41,871 nt of DNA from a virus (taxonomy: Duplodnaviria; Caudoviricetes). Below the pieces are notes generated by a model. The model ran no database searches, had not been told where the DNA came from, and saw only the letters and a list, made by a program, of their open reading frames with translations. This document shows, piece by piece, positions 244 to 41,871 of the stretch. Each line of letters begins with the position of its first letter. Position 1 is the stretch's first letter. Made by a program: the position numbers and the translations under genes. The stretch lies in the IMG/VR virus record IMGVR_UViG_3300042923_001789, positions 1 through 41,871 of that record; one strand, 5' to 3'.

Positions 244-272
244 ACAGTCATAAGACAGTCAAAAAACAGTCA
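244..272 (+). repeat. Three ACAGTCA direct repeats, 11-bp period; probable integrase arm-type sites
   Basis: ACAGTCA at 244, 255, 266; the same motif and period recur at 41823 and 41834 in the integrase 3' end. Confidence 0.7.
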
Positions 273-608: not shown

Positions 609-689
609 TAACATTATAACATTGTTATACATTTCACATATTCGTATATACATATTTTATTCCTATGTACATAAAACTGTCAAGCAATG

Positions 690-718
690 TTGTCTATTCT
701 ACATATTTATGCTATTAT
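690..718 (+). promoter_or_regulatory. Putative SigA promoter for XRE gene
   Basis: TTGTCT-N17-TATTAT with TG extension. Confidence 0.5.
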
Positions 719-734
719 TTGGCAGGGTGATAAT

Positions 735-1022
735 ATGGAATATAATGGTGAAACCATTGGTTATAAAGCAAGAATGGCCAGGATAAATAAAAATATAAAA
801 CAAAGTGAAATAGCCGATCACTTGGGTATGCACCAAACAACATATTCCAGGTTCGAAAACGGCACACATGATATCGATTTATTCAAAGCAATAAAATTAT
901 GTAACTACTTTGATATAAAATTGTCATGGTTAGTTGACGAAGAGGAAAACGATTTTACCTTATCAGAACAAGCCGATATTGAACGTTATAAACGGTACAT
1001 TAGATCTATTCGTAAAAACTAA
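735..1022 (+). CDS. XRE-family HTH transcriptional regulator
   Basis: IKQSEIADHLGMHQTTYSRFENG HTH_3 pattern; start moved to ATG 735 after AGGGTGA RBS. Confidence 0.9.
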   Translation: MEYNGETIGYKARMARINKNIKQSEIADHLGMHQTTYSRFENGTHDIDLFKAIKLCNYFDIKLSWLVDEEENDFTLSEQADIERYKRYIRSIRKN

Positions 1023-1264: not shown

Positions 1265-1358
1265 AGAAACTATATAAATATATTTAAAAATATTAAATTC
1301 TATGGTATCAATTTCATTTTGTGTTCATAGAATATATTAGAAAATATAAAAAACTATA
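1265..1358 (+). repeat. Candidate parC centromere: 4+3 degenerate 10-bp direct repeats around a promoter-like gap
   Basis: AGAAACTATA/TAAATATATT/TAAAAATATT/AAATTCTATG (1265-1304) and AGAATATATT/AGAAAATATA/AAAAACTATA (1329-1358); AT-rich so specificity is limited. Confidence 0.5.
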
Positions 1359-1373
1359 AGGAGCTAATAGAAA

Positions 1374-2273
1374 ATGATATTAGGAGTGGATGTTGGATAC
1401 GACAATACTAAAGATAGTCAACGTCATATCTTCAAAACAGCCTATACTAGAAAAGATCCTCTTGTTTCTGACTCAAATAAGATTACGATTGATGGAATTG
1501 ATCACTGGTTTGGTATCGGCAACCCAAATACTGATATAGACAAAATAGAACATCCTATTAACGAGATATGTTTCTTGTCGTGTATTGCAATGTGTGGAAC
1601 AAATGAATATAGCATAATCACCGGATTACCTATTATTCAATGCAAAGAGAAGAAAGAAAAGTTTAGAGATACTATTATGAGTTATAACGGACGTGAAATT
1701 ATTTATAAAGGAAGGCAAATTAATTACAGAATAAAACAAGTGGAAATATGTCCTCAGGGTGCTATCGTTGCTTGCTCTACAAATGGCTCTACGGAAGATA
1801 GAAACCTAATCGATATAGGCAGCTATACAATCAATGTTGCTTCACTTAAATATGTAAATGGAACACCAAGGATTGTTAAAACCGATACTTGGTACAGTGG
1901 GATATTAACGCTATACAAAAATGTTATTGATGAAGTCAATAGAAGATTTGACACTACTTTAGAACATAGAGATGCAGAGAAGATTTTAAGCAAAGGCTTA
2001 TGTGTTGATGGGGAAAAGCAAGATATAGAATTTTTAAAGCCTATTATCAGAGAGTATTTAGAACCAATATTATCTCAGTATAAAGCAAATTATGATTACA
2101 GAACCGTTCCCACTTTGTTATTTGGCGGTGGTGCCAATTTGCTATATAATGCTTTTGTTAAATCAATTAAAGGAACGCTACTTCTTCCGGATCCACAATT
2201 TGCAAATGCAAACAGCTATTTTCAATATGGTGTACAAAAGTTTGATAAATACATTGTACAAAATTCAAGGTAA
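1374..2273 (+). CDS. parM: ParM/StbA-family actin-like ATPase
   Basis: GVDVGYDNTK (phosphate 1), PQG, IDIGSYT (phosphate 2), FGGGA (adenosine), PQFANA. Confidence 0.9.
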   Translation: MILGVDVGYDNTKDSQRHIFKTAYTRKDPLVSDSNKITIDGIDHWFGIGNPNTDIDKIEHPINEICFLSCIAMCGTNEYSIITGLPIIQCKEKKEKFRDTIMSYNGREIIYKGRQINYRIKQVEICPQGAIVACSTNGSTEDRNLIDIGSYTINVASLKYVNGTPRIVKTDTWYSGILTLYKNVIDEVNRRFDTTLEHRDAEKILSKGLCVDGEKQDIEFLKPIIREYLEPILSQYKANYDYRTVPTLLFGGGANLLYNAFVKSIKGTLLLPDPQFANANSYFQYGVQKFDKYIVQNSR

Positions 2274-2285
2274 GGAGGTGAGTAT

Positions 2286-2492
2286 TTGAGTAAGTTAGTG
2301 CCGGTCTATTTTGGTGATGAGGCAGACGATCAAGAATTACTAAAGAAAGTTAACAGACACTGTAAGCACATATCGAAGAGTGGTTTTTTCAAACAATTAG
2401 CAGCTGATTATTTCGAAAGAGAAGAAAACAAAAGCACAAATGGATTAAATCAGAATGTAACCAATGTACCGCCAGATTTATTCGACTTATAA
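2286..2492 (+). CDS. ParR-like small DNA-binding adaptor (ribbon-helix-helix-like)
   Basis: 68 aa directly after parM, AAGGAGGTG RBS; strand (LVPVYF) then two helices and a low-complexity tail ending in hydrophobic/acidic residues. Confidence 0.65.
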   Translation: MSKLVPVYFGDEADDQELLKKVNRHCKHISKSGFFKQLAADYFEREENKSTNGLNQNVTNVPPDLFDL

Positions 2493-2602
2493 AAATAACC
2501 CCGCGCCACTTTACCAGAGGGGAACACGGAGTTATTAATCGGTTACTCGTAAAAATAACCATTTCTATATTATCATATAGAATTTTCGAAAGGAAGTGTT
2601 TT

Positions 2603-3907
2603 ATGAAAAAAGATTTCCAGAAAACTGTATTAGATACCAGTACAGGGTTAGTTCTTACTGGTGGAATGATATCTCTTTTATATAAGGCTTCTGCACCTAT
2701 TATTAACTTACTTGATAGATTATCTCCTGGATCACTTAATATACAATCAGATATAAATAATGTAGCTGTGTCGTTTGCTCTTGCGGGAGCTGCAGGACTG
2801 TATTATTTCTGGACCACAAAGAGTAAATTTGATTTGGTTTTTCGTGAATTAGGATTAGGAACAGATACCAGATACCCAATCATGAAAAGCAAGAAAAAAT
2901 ATAGCCATTCTATTACCTATAAATTTACTCTTCCACCCGGTTTAACCACCGATGATTTTATTAAAAAGCAAATAGCCATAGAACAACATATAGGAAAGAA
3001 AATTAACATTGAATACATCAATAAAGGCCTGTTTATTATCGAGGAATATACCATGAATGCTATTCCGTTTTATGATTATGAACCTATTGAATTAAAAGGA
3101 AATGTGCCAATTGTTACTGGGAAAGATCGAAAAGGTAATTATATTTGTTTTGATCTTGCTGAAGGAACAGAGCCACATTTACTATTAGCAGGTTCTACCG
3201 GTTGTGGCAAAACTACTGCCATACACTCAATTATCACAAACATAATTTTATTTACTAATGTTAATCTTCATTTGATTGATTTAAAACACGGAGCCAGTTT
3301 CAATGTCTATAAGAAATCGTCTCATGTAAAATCATTTGCTGACACTCTAGAAAAGGCAGAAAAGGTATTGAAATCTATTAACGAAGAAATAGAGACTAGA
3401 TACCAAAAAATGGCTAGAAACGGGTTTAGCGACATTCAAAGCTATAACAAACGTCATAAAAGCAATCCAATGACTTATGAATTATTAGTATTAGATGAAA
3501 TGATTGATTTAACCCATAGAAACGATTTACTAGAGCAATTAGAGATTATATCAGCCAAGGCAAGAGGATGCGGTATTCATGCCATTTACAGCACTCAGAG
3601 ACCAGATAAAGATGTATTAAACGGTAGAATAAAATCTAATGTCACAAATGTACTAGGAATGAGAACAAAGGACTCGATCAATTCAAGAATTATTATCGAT
3701 ACGGATGGTTTAGAAAAATTAAATGGCAAAGGCCACGGATTATTTAGTAGACTCGGAGATATCACAGAAATTCAAACACCCTATATTGATACTGCCAAAG
3801 TTAAAACATTAATCAGTCATACTTATATATCCAAGATAGAGCCAAAGGCTATTCCATCTGAAAAGATCGATATTGATGTAACTGATTTGGAGGTGCTGCA
3901 AAAATGA
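2603..3907 (+). CDS. FtsK/SpoIIIE-family ATPase with N-terminal membrane anchor (coupling-protein-like)
   Basis: HLLLAGSTGCGKT Walker A, IDLK, LLVLDE Walker B, ARGCGIH, TQRP; two N-terminal hydrophobic segments; no room for a gamma domain. Confidence 0.92.
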   Translation: MKKDFQKTVLDTSTGLVLTGGMISLLYKASAPIINLLDRLSPGSLNIQSDINNVAVSFALAGAAGLYYFWTTKSKFDLVFRELGLGTDTRYPIMKSKKKYSHSITYKFTLPPGLTTDDFIKKQIAIEQHIGKKINIEYINKGLFIIEEYTMNAIPFYDYEPIELKGNVPIVTGKDRKGNYICFDLAEGTEPHLLLAGSTGCGKTTAIHSIITNIILFTNVNLHLIDLKHGASFNVYKKSSHVKSFADTLEKAEKVLKSINEEIETRYQKMARNGFSDIQSYNKRHKSNPMTYELLVLDEMIDLTHRNDLLEQLEIISAKARGCGIHAIYSTQRPDKDVLNGRIKSNVTNVLGMRTKDSINSRIIIDTDGLEKLNGKGHGLFSRLGDITEIQTPYIDTAKVKTLISHTYISKIEPKAIPSEKIDIDVTDLEVLQK

Positions 3908-4452
3908 TGTTTACCCATCGTGATATTGAAATAATAAACTTTCTTGAAGAATACCGGATTGCTTCAACAACTACTTTAAAAGAATTTTTCTTCCCTAGTA
4001 TAAGATCATGCCAGGCAAGGCTAAAAGCATTATATGAAAATAAAAAGCTTCAACGTGCCAGACTCACTATGAACCATGATTATATTTACTACATCAAAAA
4101 ACCATATGGAGTTATGCATGATTTGTTATGCACGGAGTTTTATCGCGAATTAAAGCGTCATACTAACGTTTTGGCTTATGTAAAAGAAAAACCTTTAGGC
4201 AAAATACGTCCAGATGCTGTATTTGGCTATAAAGAGAATGATAGACAATTTCTAGGATTATTAGAAGTTGAGCTTTCTCATAAAGGATTTGATTTTGATA
4301 AATATGAAACATTTTTTAAAACGGCAGCGTACAAAGAATTTTTTCCTATAATGCCAACGATTTATATTGTTGCAAAAAATGTAAAAATTCCCAAGGGTAG
4401 TCTAATTAAATATGTAACCATTAAACCTGATATGAGTGATTTTAGATTATAG
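3904..4452 (+). CDS. Replication-relaxation (Replic_Relax / MOBC-like) protein
   Basis: N-terminal wHTH-like (THRDIEIINFL...RLKALYE), HDL, RPDA...LEVELSHK...KY PD-(D/E)xK-type motif; ATGA-coupled to ftsK. Confidence 0.8.
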   Translation: MMFTHRDIEIINFLEEYRIASTTTLKEFFFPSIRSCQARLKALYENKKLQRARLTMNHDYIYYIKKPYGVMHDLLCTEFYRELKRHTNVLAYVKEKPLGKIRPDAVFGYKENDRQFLGLLEVELSHKGFDFDKYETFFKTAAYKEFFPIMPTIYIVAKNVKIPKGSLIKYVTIKPDMSDFRL

Positions 4453-4462
4453 GAGGATAATT

Positions 4463-4969
4463 ATGATAATAGGAGCAATTGTTGTAATATTATTAAGTGC
4501 TGCAGTTATTTCCAGTGATATGGTATATGCTCATAACACAAACAATCCGCAACCGGAACCACAAAGGCAGTCAACTGTTCAAGAAGTTTATCAATCTAAT
4601 AAAGTAAAAATTTTTGACAGTCAATCCATTATGACTATAGATGCCGATGATTGGCTCGAAAAATATTCTAGTGATATATGGGATACAAAAACGCAAACTA
4701 AAATGAAAAATAATTGGAAGGGAAACTATATAAAGATTACAGGAACAATCAACAAAATTCATACTGACTTTATCGATGGAACTTATTTTTCCATTAAGCA
4801 ATCCCATGATGGAGATGTTACAAAAGGTTGGGTTACTATAGTATGCCATATATTTAATGATACTGATAAAGAAAAAATATTTGAATATAAATCAGGAGAC
4901 GAAATAACCGTAATAGGTTATTCAAAATGGATCACTGGACCAGAATTAATTGACTGCTATATTCGTTAA
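4463..4969 (+). CDS. Membrane-anchored OB-fold protein (tRNA_anti-like family)
   Basis: N-terminal hydrophobic helix; WKGNYIKITGTI...VC...GDEITVIG...LIDC pattern; AGGAGG RBS before ATG 4463. Confidence 0.7.
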   Translation: MIIGAIVVILLSAAVISSDMVYAHNTNNPQPEPQRQSTVQEVYQSNKVKIFDSQSIMTIDADDWLEKYSSDIWDTKTQTKMKNNWKGNYIKITGTINKIHTDFIDGTYFSIKQSHDGDVTKGWVTIVCHIFNDTDKEKIFEYKSGDEITVIGYSKWITGPELIDCYIR

Positions 4970-4996
4970 CTCATTCGTTTACTATTTCGTTATCTA
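4961..4996 (+). repeat. Three 12-bp direct repeats
   Basis: ATTCGTTAACTC / ATTCGTTTACTA / TTTCGTTATCTA; TTCGTT at 4962, 4974, 4986. Confidence 0.7.
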
Positions 4997-5188: not shown

Positions 5189-5599
5189 ATGGATAATAAA
5201 AAACGTAATAAACTTATCATTGCAATTTCTATTTTAATTTGTTTACCAATTCTAATAGTTGCATTGTCGGTTATATATACCAGTATAACGCGTCCAAAAG
5301 CTGATTATGACGGCTTTAGAGCTGCAATGACTTCGTACTTAGATCAAAATTCAGATGTTGTCCAGGTAAATATAATTGAGAATGATATGTTTAAAGTAAC
5401 CGTTAGTAATGAATGGTATAATTCATCAAATGTCGATAAACTTAAGTTTTGTCAAAATGTTCACGGTGCTATTTATTCATACGCTAGTCGATACAAATTA
5501 ATTTATAAGAAATCAGATATTGTATTTTTAAATTTTTATGATGCTTCAAATATAAAAGTAGCAGAACAAGATAAGTTTGAATTTAAAATATTACAATAA
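5189..5599 (+). CDS. Single-pass membrane hypothetical protein (moron)
   Basis: Basic N-terminus plus long hydrophobic helix; AGAGG RBS; TTTACA-N17-TAGGAT promoter candidate at 5136-5164. Confidence 0.8.
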   Translation: MDNKKRNKLIIAISILICLPILIVALSVIYTSITRPKADYDGFRAAMTSYLDQNSDVVQVNIIENDMFKVTVSNEWYNSSNVDKLKFCQNVHGAIYSYASRYKLIYKKSDIVFLNFYDASNIKVAEQDKFEFKILQ

Positions 5600-12782: not shown

Positions 12783-14867
12783 TTATTCCTCCAATCTTGT
12801 TAATGTAAAGCTTAGTATATATCCGAAAACATCTTCCCGTATCACTACGTTTGATATTTCTACTACGTAGCTATACCCTTTATCATTTCTGTACAAAAGT
12901 GTGTTATAACTCGATATACGGTAAAAATCATCAAATTGATTGCTTGATATAAAATATTCGTGTTGCTCTGCGTGATTTTTATTTGTTGTACTTTGAGATA
13001 TTGGATATTCCCTGCCATTACAATAAGTTTTGTGTTGATCCTTTGACAAAGATATTGTTTTTCTTTTATCGTTATCTTTAGTTTTCCATAGTTGAATAAA
13101 ATCAGATTGATTTTGAAGATCAGATATTATAATGCCATCGAAATTTAATTCTAACATTAATATATCACTGTCGTTAAATCCGCTATCACTCAATGCTCTA
13201 ACAAAATATTGATTTTGTCCGGCCGATGCTGAGTAATCTAATAATGTATTACTTGTAATAGACGCTATTTGAATATAATCATGATCTTTGCTGCCTTTAC
13301 GATATATTAAGTTTTTAGCAGTATTTGACGTAATCAATATCGAGTTATACAGTTCTTTTTCGGTACCAGTAATAATTGGTTTATCTGGCTTTATTGTGCT
13401 GATAGTAAATAAATAAATCGTTTCTGCACTCCAAAATCCATAAATATTACTCGTTTTTACACCAACTGAATAACTTCCATCATGCAAATATTTATCTATT
13501 TTATAACTATTGATCGTTGCCCCCGGTACTTCTTGGCTATCATAAATAATTAGACCGTTTTCGTATATCTTTATAACGAACAAATCTTGTTCTGTTGAAT
13601 GCCAATTGATTGTAGGTTGAGCTTTATTAGTAACGCTTGTTATTTCGGGACTGTTTGGTCTGCCTATCGAATAAAATGTATACCAATCAGAATAAGGACC
13701 AACTTCGTTGAATGCATTGTAACATCTTACTCTCCATTTATAATTACCCCCACTTAAAACATTTATAGGTAAAGAGTATTGGTTGAGCACATTCGTAATA
13801 CTTACAGTTGTTGCAGCATCTGTTCCCTTTTGGTATTGTAAGTCAAACTTGGCTTGACTATATCCATATTGATCTGTAAACTTCCATCTAAAAACAACAA
13901 TATCGGAAGAATTGACAATTGTATTTACAGGATTTATTACTTCCGGTACCGATGGGAGAGTCGCCCCAATTGTAAAGCTTGCAATATCAGAAAACTCCGA
14001 AACATCTCCGTTGCTATCTGTTACTTTAACTTTCCATTTGACTGTTGCACCATTAGTAAATGTATTAGCCGGTATCACGTGATAATTATTTGTTGTTCCA
14101 GACACCGTTGTTGATGTAGCAAAATTATCAATTGAATACACTAATTGATATGCTGCCTGTGTCGTCCCCATATTTTCGTCTTGAAAATTCCATGATAACT
14201 TAATTTCTCCGGCTCTGTTTCTGGCTGAATTAGATGGTATTAAGTTAGTAGGCTTGGGCGGTACATAATCAATGTAAGTAACTTCGAGTTTTGGTGCATA
14301 AGTAGACCCGGCTTCTAGTGATATGAAATTAATAGCATTTACCCCAGACATGAGGGAGTAATTTTCGTCAAAGAACATTGCCACAATGCATTCGGAATTT
14401 GAATAACTCTTGACATTGTAGGATAAATAACCACCGGTTGTATATGAAATGCTTGCGGATGCGTCATTAACATCATCCTTGACTCCGTAAGGATTATTTA
14501 AACCCATTTTACTTTGAACATCATTATACGTAAGTGCATCTATTTCATTTAATGTATAGCCGTTTAATGCTCTTGCTTTAACTGCTGTTTGCGGTGGATT
14601 GGTATAATATTCTACTAAGTGCCAAGATAATCCCTGAGACTCGTTATATAAGTTATTATAATAAGCTTTAAATACAAGGTTGGTTATGATCTTATTATTT
14701 GGGATAGATGATAAATCAAATCCGATAATACTTGCATAATTTCCCTTGCCTGACTCTACGCGTGATACCTTTAATTGACTAGATCCAGAGAAGTTGCCTA
14801 ATGGACTTTTGCCAGATATATAAGTATCTTTTACTGCGGATAATATTATATTAGCCAATAGGTACAA
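12783..14867 (-). CDS. Distal tail protein with DNRLRE-like and FN3-like domains
   Basis: KDTYIS...IGFDLSSIP...PKLEVTY N-terminal domain; repeated P..P...P / W / WKVKV, WRVRC FN3-like units; follows the tape measure gene. Confidence 0.65.
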   Translation of the reverse strand: MYLLANIILSAVKDTYISGKSPLGNFSGSSQLKVSRVESGKGNYASIIGFDLSSIPNNKIITNLVFKAYYNNLYNESQGLSWHLVEYYTNPPQTAVKARALNGYTLNEIDALTYNDVQSKMGLNNPYGVKDDVNDASASISYTTGGYLSYNVKSYSNSECIVAMFFDENYSLMSGVNAINFISLEAGSTYAPKLEVTYIDYVPPKPTNLIPSNSARNRAGEIKLSWNFQDENMGTTQAAYQLVYSIDNFATSTTVSGTTNNYHVIPANTFTNGATVKWKVKVTDSNGDVSEFSDIASFTIGATLPSVPEVINPVNTIVNSSDIVVFRWKFTDQYGYSQAKFDLQYQKGTDAATTVSITNVLNQYSLPINVLSGGNYKWRVRCYNAFNEVGPYSDWYTFYSIGRPNSPEITSVTNKAQPTINWHSTEQDLFVIKIYENGLIIYDSQEVPGATINSYKIDKYLHDGSYSVGVKTSNIYGFWSAETIYLFTISTIKPDKPIITGTEKELYNSILITSNTAKNLIYRKGSKDHDYIQIASITSNTLLDYSASAGQNQYFVRALSDSGFNDSDILMLELNFDGIIISDLQNQSDFIQLWKTKDNDKRKTISLSKDQHKTYCNGREYPISQSTTNKNHAEQHEYFISSNQFDDFYRISSYNTLLYRNDKGYSYVVEISNVVIREDVFGYILSFTLTRLEE

Positions 14868-16521
14868 CCCCCTGTCTGTATTGTTGTTTTAGACCATTCG
14901 CCCATTTAACAATATTATTTATCTGCACTAAATCATCTGCCGGTACAGTAATGCTTATATATGTGTCTCCTGTCATTCCTTGACTTTCAGCATTAGTATA
15001 AACTTTACTTCCTCTTGGCAATTCAACTATTTCTGGACCAGCTTCACCTACCCATGCACGTCCACCATCTGAATTCCTTGTACCGTTTGCATATCCTATG
15101 GCTCTTGATGTGTTTTGTGGAACCTGAGAGACTGTACTTGTCATTGTACTGACCGAATTACCAATAGCATTCATGGACCCTTGTAATTCATTGCTTTTAC
15201 CGGATATAACTGCTATGATGGCAGCTAACGCAATTAAAGCAGCTACTACCGCCATAATAATTCCAACCGTCTTTAATGTCTTTGTGTCAACTGTATCTAG
15301 AAATGATTTTATTGTACCTGCTGTTTCAGTAACAGATTTAATAGCTTTGACCACCAATACTACAGTAGTTATTACACTGGCTAGTACAACTAATGTTTGA
15401 AGGACCGGAACTGGTATATTAGCAATAGCTGTAAATAAAGCTGTTAAAACCGGAAGTAAAGCTAATCCAAGGCTATTTTTAAGTGCTCCGGTTGTATTCT
15501 CTAGCTTATCCATTGCATCTTTCATTTTTCCTAATTTGTCAAGGCTGTCCTCACTCATGACCGTTCCCATGTTCTCGGCTTCAATTCCTAATTCCTTAAG
15601 CCTTTTACTTCCGGCTTCAATTAATGGATTTAGTTCCTTTGCAGACTTTCCGAGAACAGTCATTGCTAATGCATCTCGTTCGGTTTCGTTCTTAATCTTC
15701 CCTAACGCATCGATAGTCTGATAAAACACTTCTTGTGAGTCTAATAAAACACCGTTGCCGTCTTTATATCTTACGTGAAGTTGTTTGAATGCATCATCCA
15801 GTTCCTTGGAGCCTTTTCTGGCATCATCCATGTTCCTGGTAAGCTTTGTCATGGATCCTGTCATAGCGCTTACTTCAACATCTAAAAAGTCTGAGGCATA
15901 CTGCATCTTTTGAAGTTCATCTGTCGCAATTCCAGTAGTCGCACTAAGAGTCAGCAAATCGTCTGCCATATTAGCTGCTGAGATTGTAAAACTAGCAAAT
16001 GTTCCAATTATGGCGCCTATACCAAGTACCGCATTGCCTACATTTTTATCTAGCCCATCAAACTTAGTAGCAACACTTTCCAGTGCCGGACTAACATTCA
16101 ATCCCATTGAAGTTGCCATTCCTCTAATCGAGTCACCGAATGATGCTGTGCTTTTTGTTGCTGCATCTATTTTGGTTTTATTCTCAGACAGTTCATTGTT
16201 TAATTTTTGTAAGGTTGTTTGGTTGTTTATGTAGGCTTTTTGCAGATTATCAAGTTGCTTATCAGATGCTTTTCCACTTGCCACTGCTTTATCGTATGCA
16301 TCTTTCGATTGCTCTACTTTTTTAGATTGAAGATTAATCTGCTGTGATAATTTTTCTTGTTTCAGTGTGAGTTGGTCAGTTTCACTTCCGTAGGCTTTGA
16401 CCTCTTCTTTGGTTAGCTTGAATTGAGCTTCTAATAATCCCATTTTACGGTTTATTTCTGCTGTACTTCCATCTAACTGTGAATAGTCCATTCCTAATGT
16501 AATTACTTTTTTATTACTCAT
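14851..16521 (-). CDS. Tape measure protein (short, 556 aa)
   Basis: Coiled-coil N-terminus, hydrophobic segments, YANGT...WVGEAGPE C-terminal motif. Confidence 0.88.
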   Translation of the reverse strand: MSNKKVITLGMDYSQLDGSTAEINRKMGLLEAQFKLTKEEVKAYGSETDQLTLKQEKLSQQINLQSKKVEQSKDAYDKAVASGKASDKQLDNLQKAYINNQTTLQKLNNELSENKTKIDAATKSTASFGDSIRGMATSMGLNVSPALESVATKFDGLDKNVGNAVLGIGAIIGTFASFTISAANMADDLLTLSATTGIATDELQKMQYASDFLDVEVSAMTGSMTKLTRNMDDARKGSKELDDAFKQLHVRYKDGNGVLLDSQEVFYQTIDALGKIKNETERDALAMTVLGKSAKELNPLIEAGSKRLKELGIEAENMGTVMSEDSLDKLGKMKDAMDKLENTTGALKNSLGLALLPVLTALFTAIANIPVPVLQTLVVLASVITTVVLVVKAIKSVTETAGTIKSFLDTVDTKTLKTVGIIMAVVAALIALAAIIAVISGKSNELQGSMNAIGNSVSTMTSTVSQVPQNTSRAIGYANGTRNSDGGRAWVGEAGPEIVELPRGSKVYTNAESQGMTGDTYISITVPADDLVQINNIVKWANGLKQQYRQGVVPIG

Positions 16522-27993: not shown

Positions 27994-28800
27994 TCATTCG
28001 ATGAACTCAGATAATTTCATTTGCTTTGACGGATTATAATTCATCCATAGAACTTCTTCTTTCTTAGAGCATACTTGAGAATATGCCGTTGCTCTCTCCT
28101 GGTGCCATCCCGAAAGCTTTCTTTGATAAAGTTCTGTGTCATATCCACTTAATAGAACTTTTCCTTTATGTTCGAGAAGAGTATCTAATAATTCCTCATG
28201 TTCTTCATCATCCATTTCACATCTGTACTGCTTCCCATGTCTGGTACCTAAAACATAAGGTGGATCGCAATATATAAGTACATTAGGAAAATTAAATCTC
28301 TTTATTAAATCTACTGCAGGTTTATTTTCAATCTGAACCCCTCTCAATCGTTCAGCTGCTAATATTACTTTTTCCGGTAGTCTGCACCAATCTTCTGATG
28401 CATAAGCCTTTTCTCTTCCTTGAACATCGTTTTTCCATCCTACCTTTTCACCGGTTGTCCTAAAACCATGCCCCATATTAAGCCGGATATAAAAATTAAC
28501 TGCTCTTTCAAAATCATCTTTCGGTACCAGACGGAAAGCTTCTTCGTATGTTTGTCTTGCATATGGTGTTAAATAAATTTCTCTGGCCAGACGTTCAGGA
28601 TCTTTCCGTATCCAATAAAACAAATTAACTACATTTCCATCTAAATCATTTACCGTTTCTATATTTGAACGGTCTTTATTGAACAATACAGCTCCACTCC
28701 CAAAGAACGCTTCTAAATAACTGTGATGTTCAGGGAAGAAATTTATAATCCAGTTTGCTAAGGACCACTTACTTCCTGGATATTTAATTACAGCTTTCAC
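27994..28800 (-). CDS. DNA adenine methyltransferase (Dam/D12 class)
   Basis: KYPGSK, YLEAFFGSGAV, ETVND, YCDPPY. Confidence 0.93.
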   Translation of the reverse strand: MKAVIKYPGSKWSLANWIINFFPEHHSYLEAFFGSGAVLFNKDRSNIETVNDLDGNVVNLFYWIRKDPERLAREIYLTPYARQTYEEAFRLVPKDDFERAVNFYIRLNMGHGFRTTGEKVGWKNDVQGREKAYASEDWCRLPEKVILAAERLRGVQIENKPAVDLIKRFNFPNVLIYCDPPYVLGTRHGKQYRCEMDDEEHEELLDTLLEHKGKVLLSGYDTELYQRKLSGWHQERATAYSQVCSKKEEVLWMNYNPSKQMKLSEFIE

Positions 28801-28804
28801 TATC

Positions 28805-28850
28805 TTCCTCCTTATCAGCTATACCGGACTTGCCGGATGGATTGATTAAT
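28805..28850. repeat. 46-bp perfect direct repeat, copy 2
   Basis: Identical to 27947-27992. Confidence 0.97.
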
Positions 28851-29639
28851 TCAGCCGTCATAACAACCGCATGGAATATCACTTTCTGGATCATACATAA
28901 GACACATGCCAACTTGGGCATCCTCATACTCCATAAAGTTCTTCCATGAGTAATTACGACCTAATCCTTGAACTGTTATTAAATTTTCTTTTGCATTATC
29001 TTCTATTGCTACAGCTCGATTAAACAGATCAGGATAATTCTGCTTTAATTCCCTTATCTCTGGCTTTTTCATTGACGGACAAAAGAAGCAACTTGATTTC
29101 CCTGGTAATGTTAATCCCTCTGATTCAATAGCCTTAACGCAATCGTCTCTGTACCATTCCCAATCAATCAACGGATAATGAGTTAAATATTTTTTGTCTT
29201 GCAAGTTACTGGCAAATGCATTGGTTTTTCGATTTTCTTCACCTGCATCAAATCCAATAAACTTATTAACTTTTTGACCGCTCTTCCAAATTTTGTTGCA
29301 TTGTTCAAGGCTATTACAATACTTTTCTTGAACTGACTTCTTATGCTTTAGAGAGCATGTCTTAAATCCATATGCTATTGAAGGTAATGACTTATTATTT
29401 ATACAATCATCTTCTAGTGTCGTTCTTGATCCGTCCTTGTTTGCGTATTCTACAATAGTTATATTTGGCAGTTTATGATCAATAAGCCACTTGTTCATTT
29501 CCGTTATGTGTTGATACGTATGAGGCATTTCTACTCCTGTATCAGAAAAAACTATTAGATCTATTGGTATCTTTCTTCGATACATACCAATTATCATTGC
29601 TGTGCTATTCGTACCGCCTCCGAAACTTACTATGTTCAA
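28851..29639 (-). CDS. PAPS-reductase-like (PP-loop) protein with Cys clusters
   Basis: VSFGGGTNS PP-loop, DTGVE, CSLKHK, SSCFFCP, terminal CGC; TTG start at 29639 after AAAGGAAG. Confidence 0.82.
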   Translation of the reverse strand: MNIVSFGGGTNSTAMIIGMYRRKIPIDLIVFSDTGVEMPHTYQHITEMNKWLIDHKLPNITIVEYANKDGSRTTLEDDCINNKSLPSIAYGFKTCSLKHKKSVQEKYCNSLEQCNKIWKSGQKVNKFIGFDAGEENRKTNAFASNLQDKKYLTHYPLIDWEWYRDDCVKAIESEGLTLPGKSSCFFCPSMKKPEIRELKQNYPDLFNRAVAIEDNAKENLITVQGLGRNYSWKNFMEYEDAQVGMCLMYDPESDIPCGCYDG

Positions 29640-29677
29640 TCTATCGCTTCCTTTCTTTAACTTACATTTACTTCCTA

Positions 29678-29706
29678 TTGATAAATACAAACAAATGTTC
29701 TATAAT
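29678..29706 (+). promoter_or_regulatory. SigA promoter with LexA box
   Basis: TTGATA-N17-TATAAT; CAAACAAATGTTCT (29688-29701) abuts the -10. Confidence 0.8.
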
Positions 29707-29734
29707 AATTTTACTAAATAATCGAGGTACCCAT

Positions 29735-30016
29735 ATGCCATTTTTAAAACCAGACCACAGTCCAATCATTCGCCATCCCCAAGGTCATCCTATTTCCGTG
29801 ATAGCTGCCTTTAATACTATAGGTGATTTACGTCCTAGATATTTCTGTATAGAGGATGATAATCAAGAGATATTCAAATTTCAGATATCAGCCGTTCATT
29901 CTACTAAGGATAAGCCAGGTGTAAAGGAATTCTATTGTTCTTATGAGGCATATGGTAAACTCAATTATATTAATTTGTGTTTTGATGTGTATCTTCATAA
30001 GTGGTCGGTTGGTTAA
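29735..30016 (+). CDS. SOS-regulated hypothetical protein (93 aa), antisense to the early operon
   Basis: GAGGT RBS, ATG 29735, own LexA-box promoter. Confidence 0.75.
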   Translation: MPFLKPDHSPIIRHPQGHPISVIAAFNTIGDLRPRYFCIEDDNQEIFKFQISAVHSTKDKPGVKEFYCSYEAYGKLNYINLCFDVYLHKWSVG

Positions 30017-30482
30017 GGTAATCCTCAATGTCAAAATCTTTTCCTTGAATAAATACCCTATCATCTCCGAATTGTCTTTTGATGAAGGCAGCTAAGCTAT
30101 CATTACTTTCTCGTATTTTTTCTCCAATAGTGTTAATATTTTTAGTTGTAGTTGCTTCCATGTTCCCACATTGACGGCATATCATCTTTTTAAAATAACT
30201 GTCATAAGACATTATGCGATTACAAACAGGACATATCTTGCTGTCAGTACATGGTTCTTTCTGAATCAATATCCATCCATTGGTTAATTGCTGTTGAAGT
30301 GCGGATATTATGGTTTCAAACATTTTTATGTCTCTATCCATTGAGTCGTAAACTTGTTTTCTCTCTTCCTCTGTCAAATCACCTGTTCCGACTACATCCT
30401 CATATGTAGCTCTTTGGTCTTTCATGTATGTCAATAAATCTTCATTCCATGCTATGGCTTGTTCAATCTCTTGCTTATTCAT
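29970..30482 (-). CDS. Hypothetical protein with Zn ribbon
   Basis: CPVC...CRQCG. Confidence 0.7.
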   Translation of the reverse strand: MNKQEIEQAIAWNEDLLTYMKDQRATYEDVVGTGDLTEEERKQVYDSMDRDIKMFETIISALQQQLTNGWILIQKEPCTDSKICPVCNRIMSYDSYFKKMICRQCGNMEATTTKNINTIGEKIRESNDSLAAFIKRQFGDDRVFIQGKDFDIEDYLNQPTTYEDTHQNTN

Positions 30483-30834
30483 CTTTGACAGCTCCTTTCA
30501 TGATTTCTTTGCAATTATCTACACATGTATTCCAGTGACGAACCAACATTTTGCCAGTCGGATTCATATAGTCAGCTTCTTCGCCTTTTTCTTTCTCTAA
30601 CCGATCCACAACCTTATCTACATCATAGGCGGTTGGATAAGCTTTTAATATTTTAATTTCTCGCTTAGCCTCTGATATATTTCTTTCTACTTGATTAATC
30701 TCATTATTCCAGTTGTGATACGTGTTGTGTGGTTCCTGCGAACGTCTTGTCTTTAATCGTTCTAACTTTGCCTCGTATCTTTCAATCTCTGCACTGATCT
30801 TATTTATTTCTACATCCGCATCAATTAACCTCAT
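30475..30834 (-). CDS. Hypothetical phage protein
   Basis: MRLIDAD...PTAYDVDKVV pattern common in clostridial phages. Confidence 0.8.
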   Translation of the reverse strand: MRLIDADVEINKISAEIERYEAKLERLKTRRSQEPHNTYHNWNNEINQVERNISEAKREIKILKAYPTAYDVDKVVDRLEKEKGEEADYMNPTGKMLVRHWNTCVDNCKEIMKGAVKDE

Positions 30835-30980
30835 TTCCCACTCTCCTTAATCCCATAATTATCCCGAAGGAATACCGGGTTTATCTTACTTGGCTTATCT
30901 ACTAATTTCCCATATTGTCTTTGGCTGTCTCTTTTCTGTTCTGATTTATTTCTTAGGTATGGACTTGATCGTTTTGGCAT
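30831..30980 (-). CDS. Small basic protein (49 aa, not in ORF track)
   Basis: GAAAGGAG RBS, MPKRSSPYLRNK..., ATGA overlap with the next gene. Confidence 0.65.
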   Translation of the reverse strand: MPKRSSPYLRNKSEQKRDSQRQYGKLVDKPSKINPVFLRDNYGIKESGK

Positions 30981-30992
30981 TGTGGCTCCTTT

Positions 30993-32396
30993 CTAAATAC
31001 TCACTGGCGATAAACTACTGTACCACTCATCAACTGTTATCTGTCCTAAGCATCCATTATGATATTCGTATGTTTTACCGTCTTTAGATGTTAGGATAAA
31101 ATCATCATTTCGCACCTGATATGCGTCACCTAAATGTATGGTATCTGGATAATTATAATGAGTTGTCCGAATAGCGTACTTATCAATCTCTGTGGCATAA
31201 TACCGGATTACGTTAGCCCTAAGTACATCCAGCGCTATATGTCCGCAGCTCATACCGTCATACATTGACATACATTCAATTTCTTCGGTGAATATTCCGG
31301 GAATAAAGGATAATTGGTGTGCAATTACATCCACGGTCCATCCGTTACCTAACATCTTATAAGCTTGACTATCAGATACAGGGAAGATATACCACTCCGG
31401 TACGGTCTGCAATCTCATACATTCTAGCACTGTAAGCTTACGGATTATGTAATACCCATCTTGGAGTTTTATCGGATATAGCTTATCTTTAATTATTATA
31501 TAACCGTCTTTAACTTCATATATTGGTTTGTTGACCGTTCCTAGGTATTGATAAAAGTCAGGTGAAGTGGTAAGGCAATTAGCTTTATCTTTCATATTCC
31601 TTCCTCTGCGTGTCTTGCTGCCTTGCATTCCTAAATCGACACAGTCCATAGGTTCTATTTCTATAAATCCGATTTTAGTAGCTTCTGGCACTTTCATAGA
31701 TTCAACCACCATAGTTGCACCGTATGATGCAGAATATGTTAAATTCGCTATAGAAGTCTTTGCATACTGCGATTTAATTGTCCTTGCTTTACCATCTTGA
31801 TCATTAATCGGAACCGGTTCTATTATCTTTGGACCTTCACCCTTATTTGTAGTCAGTGTTCGTGATTTACCATTAATCTGCATTACTTCGCCGTTCATAC
31901 CTTTCCCGCTCGGATTTACGTTTAGAACGGAAATTGGCTCAGCGGCCATATGTCTTGAATAAGAATGTTGCTTAGTTGGGTTGTATTCGCCTGCTGTTTT
32001 ATAGTAATGTGCATCAAGTGTATAACTCTTCTCTCTCCAGCAAACACCTGTCTCTAAAATGTCTTTAAGTAGTATTTCTTTATCCTTTGGTTGTTTCACT
32101 CCCGGTATGTTAGTCCAATACAGCCTATTGCGGTTCTGAGCTGATACCAAAGCCGAATTAATCAGTATTGGTTCTACTCCTAACTCTCTTGTTATCTGTT
32201 CTCTAATTGCCGGTGCCATCGATTTGTTATTCTCATAAAGGAAATAGTCTGGTTTGTACTTCTTAAGACCTATTACATAATTCTCGAATAACTCCCACCC
32301 TAACCCGGATGGCTCTGTTTCTCTATTCTTGGTCTGTGCTATTGACCAATGCGTGCAAGGGCTTCCACCTATGTACAATTTAATCATTAATTTCAT
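30993..32396 (-). CDS. DNA cytosine-5 methyltransferase, circularly permuted
   Basis: GGSPC (IV), YENN (VI), QNRNRLYW (VIII), RLQ (IX), LGNGW (X), then SMYDGMSCG (I), EID (II), GD (III). Confidence 0.9.
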   Translation of the reverse strand: MKLMIKLYIGGSPCTHWSIAQTKNRETEPSGLGWELFENYVIGLKKYKPDYFLYENNKSMAPAIREQITRELGVEPILINSALVSAQNRNRLYWTNIPGVKQPKDKEILLKDILETGVCWREKSYTLDAHYYKTAGEYNPTKQHSYSRHMAAEPISVLNVNPSGKGMNGEVMQINGKSRTLTTNKGEGPKIIEPVPINDQDGKARTIKSQYAKTSIANLTYSASYGATMVVESMKVPEATKIGFIEIEPMDCVDLGMQGSKTRRGRNMKDKANCLTTSPDFYQYLGTVNKPIYEVKDGYIIIKDKLYPIKLQDGYYIIRKLTVLECMRLQTVPEWYIFPVSDSQAYKMLGNGWTVDVIAHQLSFIPGIFTEEIECMSMYDGMSCGHIALDVLRANVIRYYATEIDKYAIRTTHYNYPDTIHLGDAYQVRNDDFILTSKDGKTYEYHNGCLGQITVDEWYSSLSPVSI

Positions 32397-33589: not shown

Positions 33590-34462
33590 CTAATCATCCA
33601 TAGATACTCCTACTTCATAATGTTCTGTTGCCTGGTTATTTCTTTTAGCTCTTTCTATTGCTTCGTAATCTTGTGCTGTATATGTACGCTGAGGATGACT
33701 ATTGAATTTGTTTTGCTTTGGCTGAGTTGGTTGCAGCGGCTTATTGATGTAATTCCCTTCAAGAACTTTAATCATGTTAGTTTCATTAATGAACCAGTCA
33801 AAATTAGCTTTCCAACTTCTATTGCTTTCTGTTTCACCTTTTAAGAATTTGCTTTCCTCTGCCATAATGAACAGCTTTTTAAAATCGTCTACTGTATAAG
33901 TCTTTAATCTAGCCTTAATTAATCTCTTTCTGTTTTCTGATAGCTTTATAACCTTAGAGTATGAAACACATATCATATGAAACAGATCAATTATTTGTTG
34001 ATAATCACATATATCTTGTTTTATATTTTGTTTTAATATTTGTTTATCTTGGGGAGCTAATCCGCTCCCTGTAGAGGTAGCTAATTCGCTCCCTGTTCCG
34101 TCCTCTTTTTCGATGGGTGGTAACTTATTAGTTACCTGTCTATCATTTAGTTGCCAGTTAACGTAATTTTTATTAATGCTTATTACTCTCGGTGTAGTAA
34201 AGGTAGCTTCTCGATCTACTCGAATAATTCCTTTGGTTATTAATTCATTAAGTTCTCTAGACACCTGTTTTTTATGTACATTGAGTGCTTTAGAAATAAA
34301 CGACTCTGATAACTCATGATTCTTTCTTGAAAATCCATATGTGTACCGGAAGACTACCAATATAATTCTAAATTGAGTACCATTTAGGCTTTGTTGAAAT
34401 ACCTGTTCTAGTAACTCATTGGCTATAGGAGTATATCCCTCTTCTTTTTGAGGACTAGCCAT
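33590..34462 (-). CDS. Replication initiator (lambda O-like N-terminus)
   Basis: GYTPIANELLE, RYTYGF, C-terminal WKANFDW...KVLEGNY; internal iterons. Confidence 0.88.
   Translation of the reverse strand: MASPQKEEGYTPIANELLEQVFQQSLNGTQFRIILVVFRYTYGFSRKNHELSESFISKALNVHKKQVSRELNELITKGIIRVDREATFTTPRVISINKNYVNWQLNDRQVTNKLPPIEKEDGTGSELATSTGSGLAPQDKQILKQNIKQDICDYQQIIDLFHMICVSYSKVIKLSENRKRLIKARLKTYTVDDFKKLFIMAEESKFLKGETESNRSWKANFDWFINETNMIKVLEGNYINKPLQPTQPKQNKFNSHPQRTYTAQDYEAIERAKRNNQATEHYEVGVSMDD
34012..34136. repeat. Putative replication origin: three 18-bp quasi-palindromic iterons plus AT-rich tract
   Basis: GGGAGCTAATCCGCTCCC (34052), GGTAGCTAATTCGCTCCC (34076), GGTAACTTATTAGTTACC (34119); T-rich 34012-34050. 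Confidence 0.75.
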
Positions 34463-39838: not shown

Positions 39839-40018
39839 TCATTCTTTGTATTCTTTACTGCGATCTAATAGAAATTGCTTAAAATCATCTTCATCCACCA
39901 TCCAACTCTTACCTGCTTTAAATGCTGGTGAATTTTTCGTTTTGAACAATTGAAGTACAGTGGTAGGTGACTTTATACCAAATCTAACCATTACTTCTTG
40001 GGTAGATAATGCTGCCAT
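39839..40018 (-). CDS. xis: Excisionase-like HTH protein (59 aa, not in ORF track)
   Basis: LSTQEVMVRFGI...PAFKAGKSWMV; GAGGTGA RBS; follows cro. Confidence 0.7.
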   Translation of the reverse strand: MAALSTQEVMVRFGIKSPTTVLQLFKTKNSPAFKAGKSWMVDEDDFKQFLLDRSKEYKE

Positions 40019-40749: not shown

Positions 40750-41871
40750 ATGCCAAAAAAGAGAGCGGACGGCAGATATGCCAGACAAATAACCATCGGG
40801 AAAGATAACAGTACTGGTAAACCAATAAAGAAAACCATTTATGGGAAAACCATAAAGGAGCTAGACCAAAACGAAAGAGAATTCAGAAACTTATTAGAAA
40901 AAGGGTTATCTACCGCAACGGATAATATTACTGTAGATACTCTTATTGATATTTGGTTAAAATCTAAAAAGACATCAGTTTCAAAAAGTTCTATGCAGCA
41001 AATATCTACCCAAACAAGAAAACTATCGTCTTATATTGGAAAAATGAAAGTAAAAGATGTAAAATTGTTTCATATTGAAAACATAATCAATGAATTAAGT
41101 GAAAATGTTAGCAATGTAACTATAAATTTATTCTTGATAAGAGTTAAAGAAATTTTTAAATATGCATGCGAAAAAGATATGATCTATAAATCCCCTGCTC
41201 AGTTCGTTAAACTATTAAAGACCGGTGAAAGTAAAAAAAGAGCAATGACGGAACATGAAAAGTCACTATTTGATATAGCCGATTTTACAGATATGCAATA
41301 TTGTTTCTTAAATATTTTACGTTATACCGGCATGAGAAAAGGCGAAGTTTTGGCACTCACAAGGCAAGATATAGACTTATCAAATAAAAAGATATCAGTA
41401 TGTAAAACTGTTATTGATAATAGCGGCAAGCCTTATATTAAACAGTCAACTAAAACAGATAGTCAAAGGACTATACCAATATTAGAACCTTTATATCCTA
41501 TAATCAAAGAATATTGTGATAATAGAATCGGTTTATTATTCCCAAATGGCAAAGGCAAGCCTATAAGTAATCAATCGTTTAATTATATTTGGGAAGATAT
41601 AATCAAACGATTAACTATTGCAAACGAGAACAAAACTATTCCGGATGGCATTACACCTCATTTATTCAGACACACATTTGCATCCGATTTGTATGATGCA
41701 GGTATAGATATTAAGAGAGCTCAATATATGTTGGGACATAAGAATATTAAAACTACACTTGATGTTTATACCCATTTTGATAAAAATAAAGTTAAAGCAG
41801 ATGAAATGAATAGTTATTACAGACAGTCAAAAGACAGTCAGCTTGTCAACTTTGGTAAGCAAAACGCCTAA
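40750..41871 (+). CDS. int: Tyrosine integrase
   Basis: N-terminal arm-binding domain (KRADGRY...IYGKT); TGMRKGE, HLFRHT, LGH, VYTH catalytic motifs. Confidence 0.96.
   Translation: MPKKRADGRYARQITIGKDNSTGKPIKKTIYGKTIKELDQNEREFRNLLEKGLSTATDNITVDTLIDIWLKSKKTSVSKSSMQQISTQTRKLSSYIGKMKVKDVKLFHIENIINELSENVSNVTINLFLIRVKEIFKYACEKDMIYKSPAQFVKLLKTGESKKRAMTEHEKSLFDIADFTDMQYCFLNILRYTGMRKGEVLALTRQDIDLSNKKISVCKTVIDNSGKPYIKQSTKTDSQRTIPILEPLYPIIKEYCDNRIGLLFPNGKGKPISNQSFNYIWEDIIKRLTIANENKTIPDGITPHLFRHTFASDLYDAGIDIKRAQYMLGHKNIKTTLDVYTHFDKNKVKADEMNSYYRQSKDSQLVNFGKQNA
41821..41840 (+). repeat. Two ACAGTCA repeats in the int 3' end; 19/20 match to 253-272
   Basis: AGACAGTCAAAAGACAGTCA vs AGACAGTCAAAAAACAGTCA. 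Confidence 0.8.

Follow-up and report, generated by a model that had tools for sequence, protein, structure and literature searches.

FtsK genes paired with Replic_Relax genes have been annotated in Bacillus phage genomes for more than ten years with no function assigned, and they leave no trace in plaque assays. In the available part of Pathria 2012 (PMC3357382), nuclease, ATPase, VirB6-like and actin genes are described in 0305phi8-36 and SPO1, partial versions of the operon are noted in Gamma and GBSV1, deletion of a related operon led to no plaque defect, and propagation without particles is proposed. The module kind was described in 2012, and the idea of virion-independent spread is not new. 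Plasmid or lysogeny roles are presumed in the accessible portions of PMC11526630, PMC9658697 and PMC3335513, and excerpts of PMC10294663 place spoIIIE homologues among the genes enriched in phages of spore-formers and mention entrapment. Background on MOBC and TcpA was taken from the accessible text of PMC3424549, PMC12857230 and PMC5357655. Here we examined a module of this kind in a stretch of 41,871 nt (positions 1-41,871 of the IMG/VR record IMGVR_UViG_3300042923_001789; Duplodnaviria; Caudoviricetes), referred to below as the window. An earlier reading made from the letters of this DNA, the sequence-only reading, had proposed that the module positions excised phage circles and translocates them into the forespore, a daughter cell or another cell. 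We find the module to be real and intact, a variant of a phage module that is known but lacks an explanation. New in our analysis is its regulation, in the form of evidence of sporulation control. In the literature covered, mainly open papers, no link was found between these genes and SpoIIID, sigE/sigK or forespore delivery; sporulation transcriptome tables may list them.

The module consists of five open reading frames (ORFs), all on the plus strand (1374-2273, 2286-2492, 2603-3907, 3904-4452 and 4436-4969), opposite to the lysis and structural genes, and all of them are intact. ORF positions and family matches agree with the sequence-only reading on co-oriented parM, ftsK-like, coupled nuclease and membrane OB-fold genes facing the lytic genes. 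The motor (2603..3907, +) is an FtsK/TcpA-type protein of 434 amino acids with a hydrophobic N-terminus (PF01580, 5.7e-23; phrog_1358, 3.9e-79). The Walker A residues G197-K203, the Walker B residues D298/E299 and the sequence TQRP were invariant in 11/11 aligned relatives, and no FtsK_gamma Pfam match was obtained; there is no room for a gamma domain because only about 40 residues follow the motor. An intact motor without a gamma domain, as earlier described, is thereby confirmed. The transmembrane anchor also claimed turned out to be modest: in a 19-residue hydropathy scan a single segment exceeded 1.4, and a second was recognized by eye. Among PDB sequences, the motor profile matched the 'DNA translocase coupling protein' 6o1w-z best (1.4e-62); we take this protein to be pCW3 TcpA.

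The nuclease gene (3904..4452, +) starts within the ftsK stop (ATGA at 3904-3907) and is translationally coupled to ftsK. Its product of 182 amino acids combines a winged helix-turn-helix (wHTH) with a PD-(D/E)XK nuclease of the Replic_Relax/MOBC-like kind. The motif of MOBC relaxases is D..ExE..K..Y. In 25 sequences D104, E121, E123 and K133 were invariant and Y134 was at least 90% conserved, so that the motif residues singled out beforehand were upheld. Among the suggested family searches, those for ParM-like and FtsK proteins gave matches, while that for Replic_Relax (PF13814) stayed below the cut-off in the window (6.3e-4; 20.3 bits against 25.3 bits); all 15 of the 15 aligned nuclease relatives matched PF13814, the best at 1.8e-37. 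A search with the window nuclease sequence returned no cultured phage among its matches. The structural model (pLDDT 94) displays an N-terminal wHTH and a PD-(D/E)XK fold with the conserved acidic residues, and structure comparison placed it next to Bacillus phage proteins (E 8e-11 to 5e-9). One of these has the length of 0305phi8-36 gp200 (283 amino acids) and, judged by that length, is presumably gp200. In the PDB, where Foldseek was the single method of comparison, the neighbours are PD-(D/E)XK and wHTH proteins, all with E>1e-3, and the fold is closest to restriction-type PD-(D/E)XK enzymes. Complex prediction for motor and nuclease gave a score of 0.41 against 0.00 for the best control, with at least 59% of contacts shared between runs and a partner pLDDT of at least 85. 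The mark used was reached by 116/157 solved pairs and 2/215 mismatched pairs; scores of 0.60 or less at that mark came from only 18 solved pairs and from both mismatched pairs. The prediction weakly supports a motor-nuclease complex.

Among all the loci fetched, the FtsK gene adjoins the nuclease gene at 159, which form 62 clusters at 70% identity. ParM is present in 16/55 clusters having 1.5 kb upstream, in a sample biased toward the kin of the window; in L182, which belongs to these 16, the ParM gene is served by a sigA-type promoter of its own. The genes are thus co-conserved, as had been expected; FtsK and nuclease form a fixed core with ParM as an optional companion, and in the window this conserved phage unit is led by a ParM/ParR-like pair. 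Five nuclease loci were without an FtsK call, namely three short or cut contigs, L389, whose nuclease frame is split, and 0305phi8-36. At L092:4833-6674 the two genes are one in-frame fusion, a single case and possibly an error. The genes overlap by about 60 nt in the Gamma-type clade. A viral-contig scan with the FtsK protein alone produced no finds, and a GTDB scan was dominated by chromosomal FtsK, with modules at 3/80 loci. The core was found in temperate, integrating phages and in the phi29-like DLc1. The last gene of the module (4436..4969, +; PF12869, 1.6e-8; start probably ATG 4463) encodes an OB-fold protein anchored in the membrane by an N-terminal hydrophobic helix. It follows the nuclease in few relatives only (L005, L319, L322/L323) and is accessory, not core.

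At the head of the module stands a ParM-like actin ATPase of 299 amino acids (1374..2273, +; PF17989, 5.8e-11; phrog_691, 9e-39). When compared with the PDB, its profile found clostridial ParMs, 7x54 with the best value (1.3e-17). The next gene (2286..2492, +), conserved in position, encodes 68 amino acids, modelled as an extended N-terminus followed by two helices. Position and helix pattern fit the ParR-like adaptor claimed earlier, but matches to ribbon-helix-helix (RHH) proteins were weak (Foldseek E 1.9-9.1; Atlas RHH neighbours 0.82-0.83). We regard it as probably an RHH protein and the ParR-like call as a lead, not a match. It may also act as a relaxosome accessory factor, because it is kept without ParM at L010, L015 and L016. 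Two 27-nt direct-repeat blocks (1277-1303 and 1331-1357, +), a candidate parC/operator, bracket the promoter; they occupy the same position in 6/6 ParM loci examined (the window and 5/5 others), in AT-rich DNA and without a shuffle control. Elsewhere in the family, related repeat arrays of the GGTAGTTAC type lie directly 3' of the promoter (L002:3658-3732; also L001, L100 and L200). They are common to the phi29-like phage and temperate siphophages, and represent a candidate cis site.

On reading the upstream regions of the family, we noticed that a GGACA box and a CATA element recur with a constant spacing between them. The pattern RGACA-N21-23-MATA, fitted to the 39 discovery regions, occurs there 17 times in the sense and 0 times in the antisense direction (shuffle mean 1.28, maximum 4 of 300), and in 4/104 other upstream regions. 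When the spacing of RGACA-Nx-MATA was counted over x = 4-30 in 56 dereplicated regions, peaks appeared at x=10 (11 cases; shuffle mean 0.93, maximum 3; antisense 1), a spacing noticed only after the held-out test described below, and at x=22 (9 cases; shuffle mean 0.67, maximum 4; antisense 1), with 5 regions at x=23 (shuffle mean <1). The peaks at 10 and 22 nt differ by roughly one turn of the helix. The box matches SpoIIID sites in Table S2 of PMC517825, e.g. ATGGACAAGC and TTGGACAGGT, and the -10 is identical to the element that sigE and sigK share in PMC3789822 (Tables S7, S8), as far as these two sources were available. A reverse scan with the promoter pattern alone gave 113 loci from 14/64 parts of viral contigs, 80 with flanks; an FtsK gene lay downstream on the same strand in 10/80 and elsewhere in none. 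Looser patterns over 400 nt stayed near shuffle level, both sigK-like (12/39 against 12.0) and -10-only (28/39 against 21.3). SpoIIID is encoded in 3/3 named host genomes tested. These patterns provide strong support for a predicted sporulation control of the family.

In the window, a predicted sigE/sigK-type promoter lies at 1305..1333 (+), with the -35 GTATCAA (1305-1311), a 14-nt spacer and the -10 CATAGAAT (1326-1333), 48 nt before the parM start. The arrangement of a CATAnnnT -10 with a -35 7-mer 14-15 nt upstream is present there. The comparison with mapped promoters, made by eye, drew on the accessible Table S7 of PMC3789822 and Table S2 of PMC517825. The pair of GTATCAA and 14-nt spacer recurs at the independent locus L322. 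CATA was found 25-100 nt before the start in 6/6 discovery and 13/14 held-out ParM-led loci, the latter including the nuclease-free pump L181 and 0305phi8-36, as against a shuffle mean of 6.48 (maximum 11), 7 in antisense and 39/104 other genes. The large-phage locus L181 (4998-9440) itself carries ParM, RHH and small membrane genes and one for a 775-amino-acid protein, with the same CATAGAAT -10 and without a nuclease call. The sigA pattern, taken as a sequence pattern only, was present in 0/20 pump-linked ParM-led operons and in 4/5 ParM genes with an operon of their own. This disfavours the delivery to a daughter cell considered earlier. In a matrix test based on the six closest promoters, 2/14 held-out loci and also 4/5 control ParM promoters scored at p<=0.05, and the matrix did not discriminate. 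Since the matrix test failed though the simple CATA test supports the class, transcription of the window copy by sigE/sigK is likely only, and the support for its predicted sporulation control is moderate.

Between parR and ftsK a conserved hairpin lies at 2494-2536. The stem folds better on the minus strand, with a U-run there, in 6/6 clostridial-type spacers, and is preceded on that strand by an AT-rich -10-like element. Five sequences, selected out of 10 aligned, show double changes at 6/13 pairs. In L010 and L015 this position is taken by another stem, and L317, L319 and L322 have no clear spacer stem. We consider the stem a candidate antisense small RNA (2490..2576, -), with a -10-like element at 2565-2576, stem arms at 2494-2503 and 2527-2536 and then the U-run; the alternative is an oriT-like hairpin.

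The explanation we prefer, with a confidence that stops just short of even, is that the module is a mother-cell system rescuing phage DNA into the forespore. SigE/sigK, in many relatives together with SpoIIID, would transcribe the unit once the sporulation septum has formed. The small RHH protein would bind the flanking repeats, and ParM filaments would push phage DNA to the forespore pole. The wHTH of the nuclease would take over from the missing gamma domain in recognizing phage DNA, which the nuclease would then cut and pass to the motor. The membrane-bound motor would then pump the DNA through a host opening between the compartments, the septal pore or the SpoIIIA-SpoIIQ channel; a host opening is invoked because the phage encodes no channel. 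In growing cells, the antisense RNA would hold motor and nuclease off. A phage would benefit on infecting a cell in which sporulation is under way, the mother cell being a dead end for it; a resident prophage moves with the chromosome in any case. Rescue of DNA entering the sporangium after septation fits the mother-cell timing and the carriage of the core by both lytic and temperate phages. The broader proposal, held more tentatively, is that lytic and temperate phages of spore-formers in Bacilli and Clostridia encode a dedicated spore-boarding machine, wired to sigE/sigK and SpoIIID, pumping after septum closure, with ParM for positioning and an antisense RNA as a vegetative lock. If the unit does deliver DNA to the forespore, phages would possess an active means of spore entrapment encoded by themselves, and DNA would for the first time be known to pass from one compartment to the other once the septum is in place; this would also bear on phage persistence in the spore banks of soil and gut. 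The promoter pattern indicates when and where a function should be sought, in the sporulating mother cell.

Several points weigh against this explanation. The forespore branch of the original proposal gains indirect support from host range and from promoters of the mother-cell type, but no channel gene was found in the window. To span two membranes, more is needed than one or two hydrophobic segments. A possible channel partner, a small membrane protein with a SpoIIIAC-like match (E 0.0047, below the cut-off), lies between ParR and FtsK at L086:4616-4837, but this is 1/16 small proteins of relatives, with none in the window. The window promoter is without the SpoIIID box (GGACA-type at the family spacing) present in many relatives, SpoIIID may act as repressor or activator, and the matrix built for the window promoter does not discriminate. 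As to the family, besides the fitting of the 21-23-nt pattern and the late recognition of the 10-nt spacing, the held-out test of RGACA-N21-23-MATA (80 new loci, 77 usable, 16 clusters) gave 5/16 clusters against a shuffle mean of 1.10, the best shuffle also reaching 5, and the largest held-out cluster was mostly without the pattern (3/54). Among the 10 reverse-scan matches, 7 cluster with Gamma, a design sequence, 1 has a near-identical promoter and 2 are independent. The hosts in the co-occurrence survey are nearly all spore-formers, which favours the explanation: Bacillaceae names are on 126/131 phage matches to two Bacillus-type nucleases, and 5/5 plasmid matches are clostridial, against 206/266 Streptococcus phages among the matches to the window integrase. 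These tallies, however, come from Bacillus-derived queries, count duplicate records and lack a denominator. Finally, mother-cell timing would be no less expected if the unit served export from the cell or acted on host DNA.

Export is the essence of an explanation that we think unlikely, in which the MOBC-like nuclease and the TcpA-like coupling motor mobilise phage DNA from the doomed mother cell to a neighbour, by borrowing a conjugation channel or in the manner of Streptomyces TraB. The match of the motor to a coupling protein speaks for it, as do a VirB2-pilin-like gene beside the core in one relative (L081, E 0.0014), the repeat arrays after the promoter, as in DLc1, which recall the direct repeats given as the TraX bind site in the accessible text of PMC12857230, and the earlier proposal in PMC3357382. 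Family scans, however, revealed no VirB4, channel or wall hydrolase gene in the module, MobC of streptococcal integrative and mobilizable elements is paired with VirD4 and never with TcpA in the part of PMC5357655 available, and the module is nearly absent from phages of non-sporulating Firmicutes, which are rich in conjugation systems. The motor-nuclease pair could instead translocate along the DNA of the host or of competitors in the mother cell and cut it, with an effect on sporulation or, as an ATPase-nuclease defence, with a block to superinfecting phages; this appears rather unlikely. The likeness of the nuclease fold to restriction-type enzymes, the moron position of the module after the lysis genes and the candidate antisense RNA, which suggests toxic products, would suit such a role. 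In PADLOC, however, the matches were confined to the generic FtsK domain (SspH, Mad8), the nuclease had none, and no defence model covered both partners; lytic phages also carry the unit, and the coupling to ParM/ParR in 16/55 clusters points to movement of the phage's own DNA.

Ordinary extrachromosomal maintenance of a prophage in growing cells, with ParMRC partition, FtsK dimer resolution or division clearance and a Replic_Relax initiator, is the usual annotation in phage genome papers and is what PMC11526630, PMC9658697 and PMC3335513 presume in the portions cited. ParM, the RHH protein and the promoter-flanking repeats do resemble ParMRC. We nevertheless judge it improbable, considering the distribution of the sigA pattern, the int, xis and repO genes of the window phage, and the core in the phi29-like DLc1. 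The occurrence in DLc1 makes plain prophage partition less plausible and also disfavours a need for excised circles. Very improbable, in our view, is that the window copy departs from its family, being decaying or under a forespore sigma factor, with ParM-ParR not co-transcribed with ftsK as the hairpin at 2494-2536 stops the message. The -10 of sigG promoters is also CATA, and the missing SpoIIID box and the hairpin itself would agree with a deviating copy. Against this stand the recurrence of the -35 and its spacer in the independent L322, the better fold and U-run of the hairpin on the minus strand, and the intact reading frames.

The window represents an integrating phage, as judged from a tyrosine integrase (int, 40750..41871, +; PF00589, 3.3e-33), an excisionase candidate (xis, 39839..40018, -; HTH_17/PF12728, 2.4e-6, above the cut-off), repO (33590-34462, from a family scan of the window ORFs), ACAGTCA repeats at both ends and an identical copy of the nuclease sequence on a 249-kb contig. 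The repeats, at 244..272 with 11-nt spacing and again at 41823 and 41834, are likely integrase arm-type sites, a function assigned from sequence. Int, xis and an O-type replicon are present as previously stated, and no type IV secretion system (T4SS) families were detected among the 62 window ORFs scanned. Upstream of the module lie an XRE-type helix-turn-helix (HTH) regulator (687..1022, +; PF01381, 2.1e-13) and, downstream of that gene, a terminator-like hairpin at 1228-1251. The HTH gene is preceded by a 70-amino-acid ORF (314-526, -) with a look-alike at the same place in L005, the two giving no match by tblastn at 1e-4. A membrane-anchored ORF of 136 amino acids without family match (5189-5599, +) lies between the module and the lysin. 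The likely tape-measure gene (14851-16521, -) encodes 556 amino acids only, and neither it nor the next gene but one has a family match. Two DNA methyltransferases (D12 adenine and C5 cytosine) and a PAPS-reductase-domain gene occupy 27994-32396 (-).

Among described systems, the 'DNA translocation operon' orf200-207 of 0305phi8-36, in the available text of PMC3357382, has the same order of regulator, actin, small protein, ATPase and MobC-like nuclease. The window ParM profile matched its gp207 at 4.4e-15. For gp200, the nuclease profile gave 9.6e-4, a value that comes from the starting profile, the iterated one having included its own targets; hhalign of gp200 with the nuclease was poor (probability 3.7). 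The operon differs in belonging to a lytic phage and in having a VirD4-like ATPase, which does not match the FtsK profile (E 3.9), and a VirB6-like gene; family and profile searches found neither of these proteins in the window module. The Bacillus and Geobacillus phages Gamma/Wbeta, BtCS33, GBSV1, Pony, DLc1 and 268TH007 share with the window the core pair of FtsK/SpoIIIE and Replic_Relax, the overlap and the promoter class, and usually the placement after the lysis genes. Unlike the window, most of them are without ParM and have a separate small membrane protein, and many have a SpoIIID-like box. TcpA/TcpM of the Clostridium perfringens plasmid pCW3 likewise comprise an FtsK-like motor with an N-terminal membrane anchor beside a non-HUH relaxase, but with a full T4SS and a relaxase of the tyrosine-recombinase type, neither of which is present in the window.

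The type II ParMRC systems of clostridial plasmids and prophages have in common with the module an actin, a downstream adaptor of RHH size and repeats flanking the promoter. They use a sigA promoter, whereas the module is linked to a pump and has a promoter predicted to be of the sporulation type. Chromosomal FtsK/SpoIIIE shares the intact motor and has the gamma domain absent from the window motor. With the entrapment of phi29 in spores by host Spo0J/parS, described in the accessible text of PMC2731898, the module would share the outcome, a phage genome in the spore. That entrapment depends on host proteins and takes place before septation, whereas the unit in the window is phage-encoded and would act after it.

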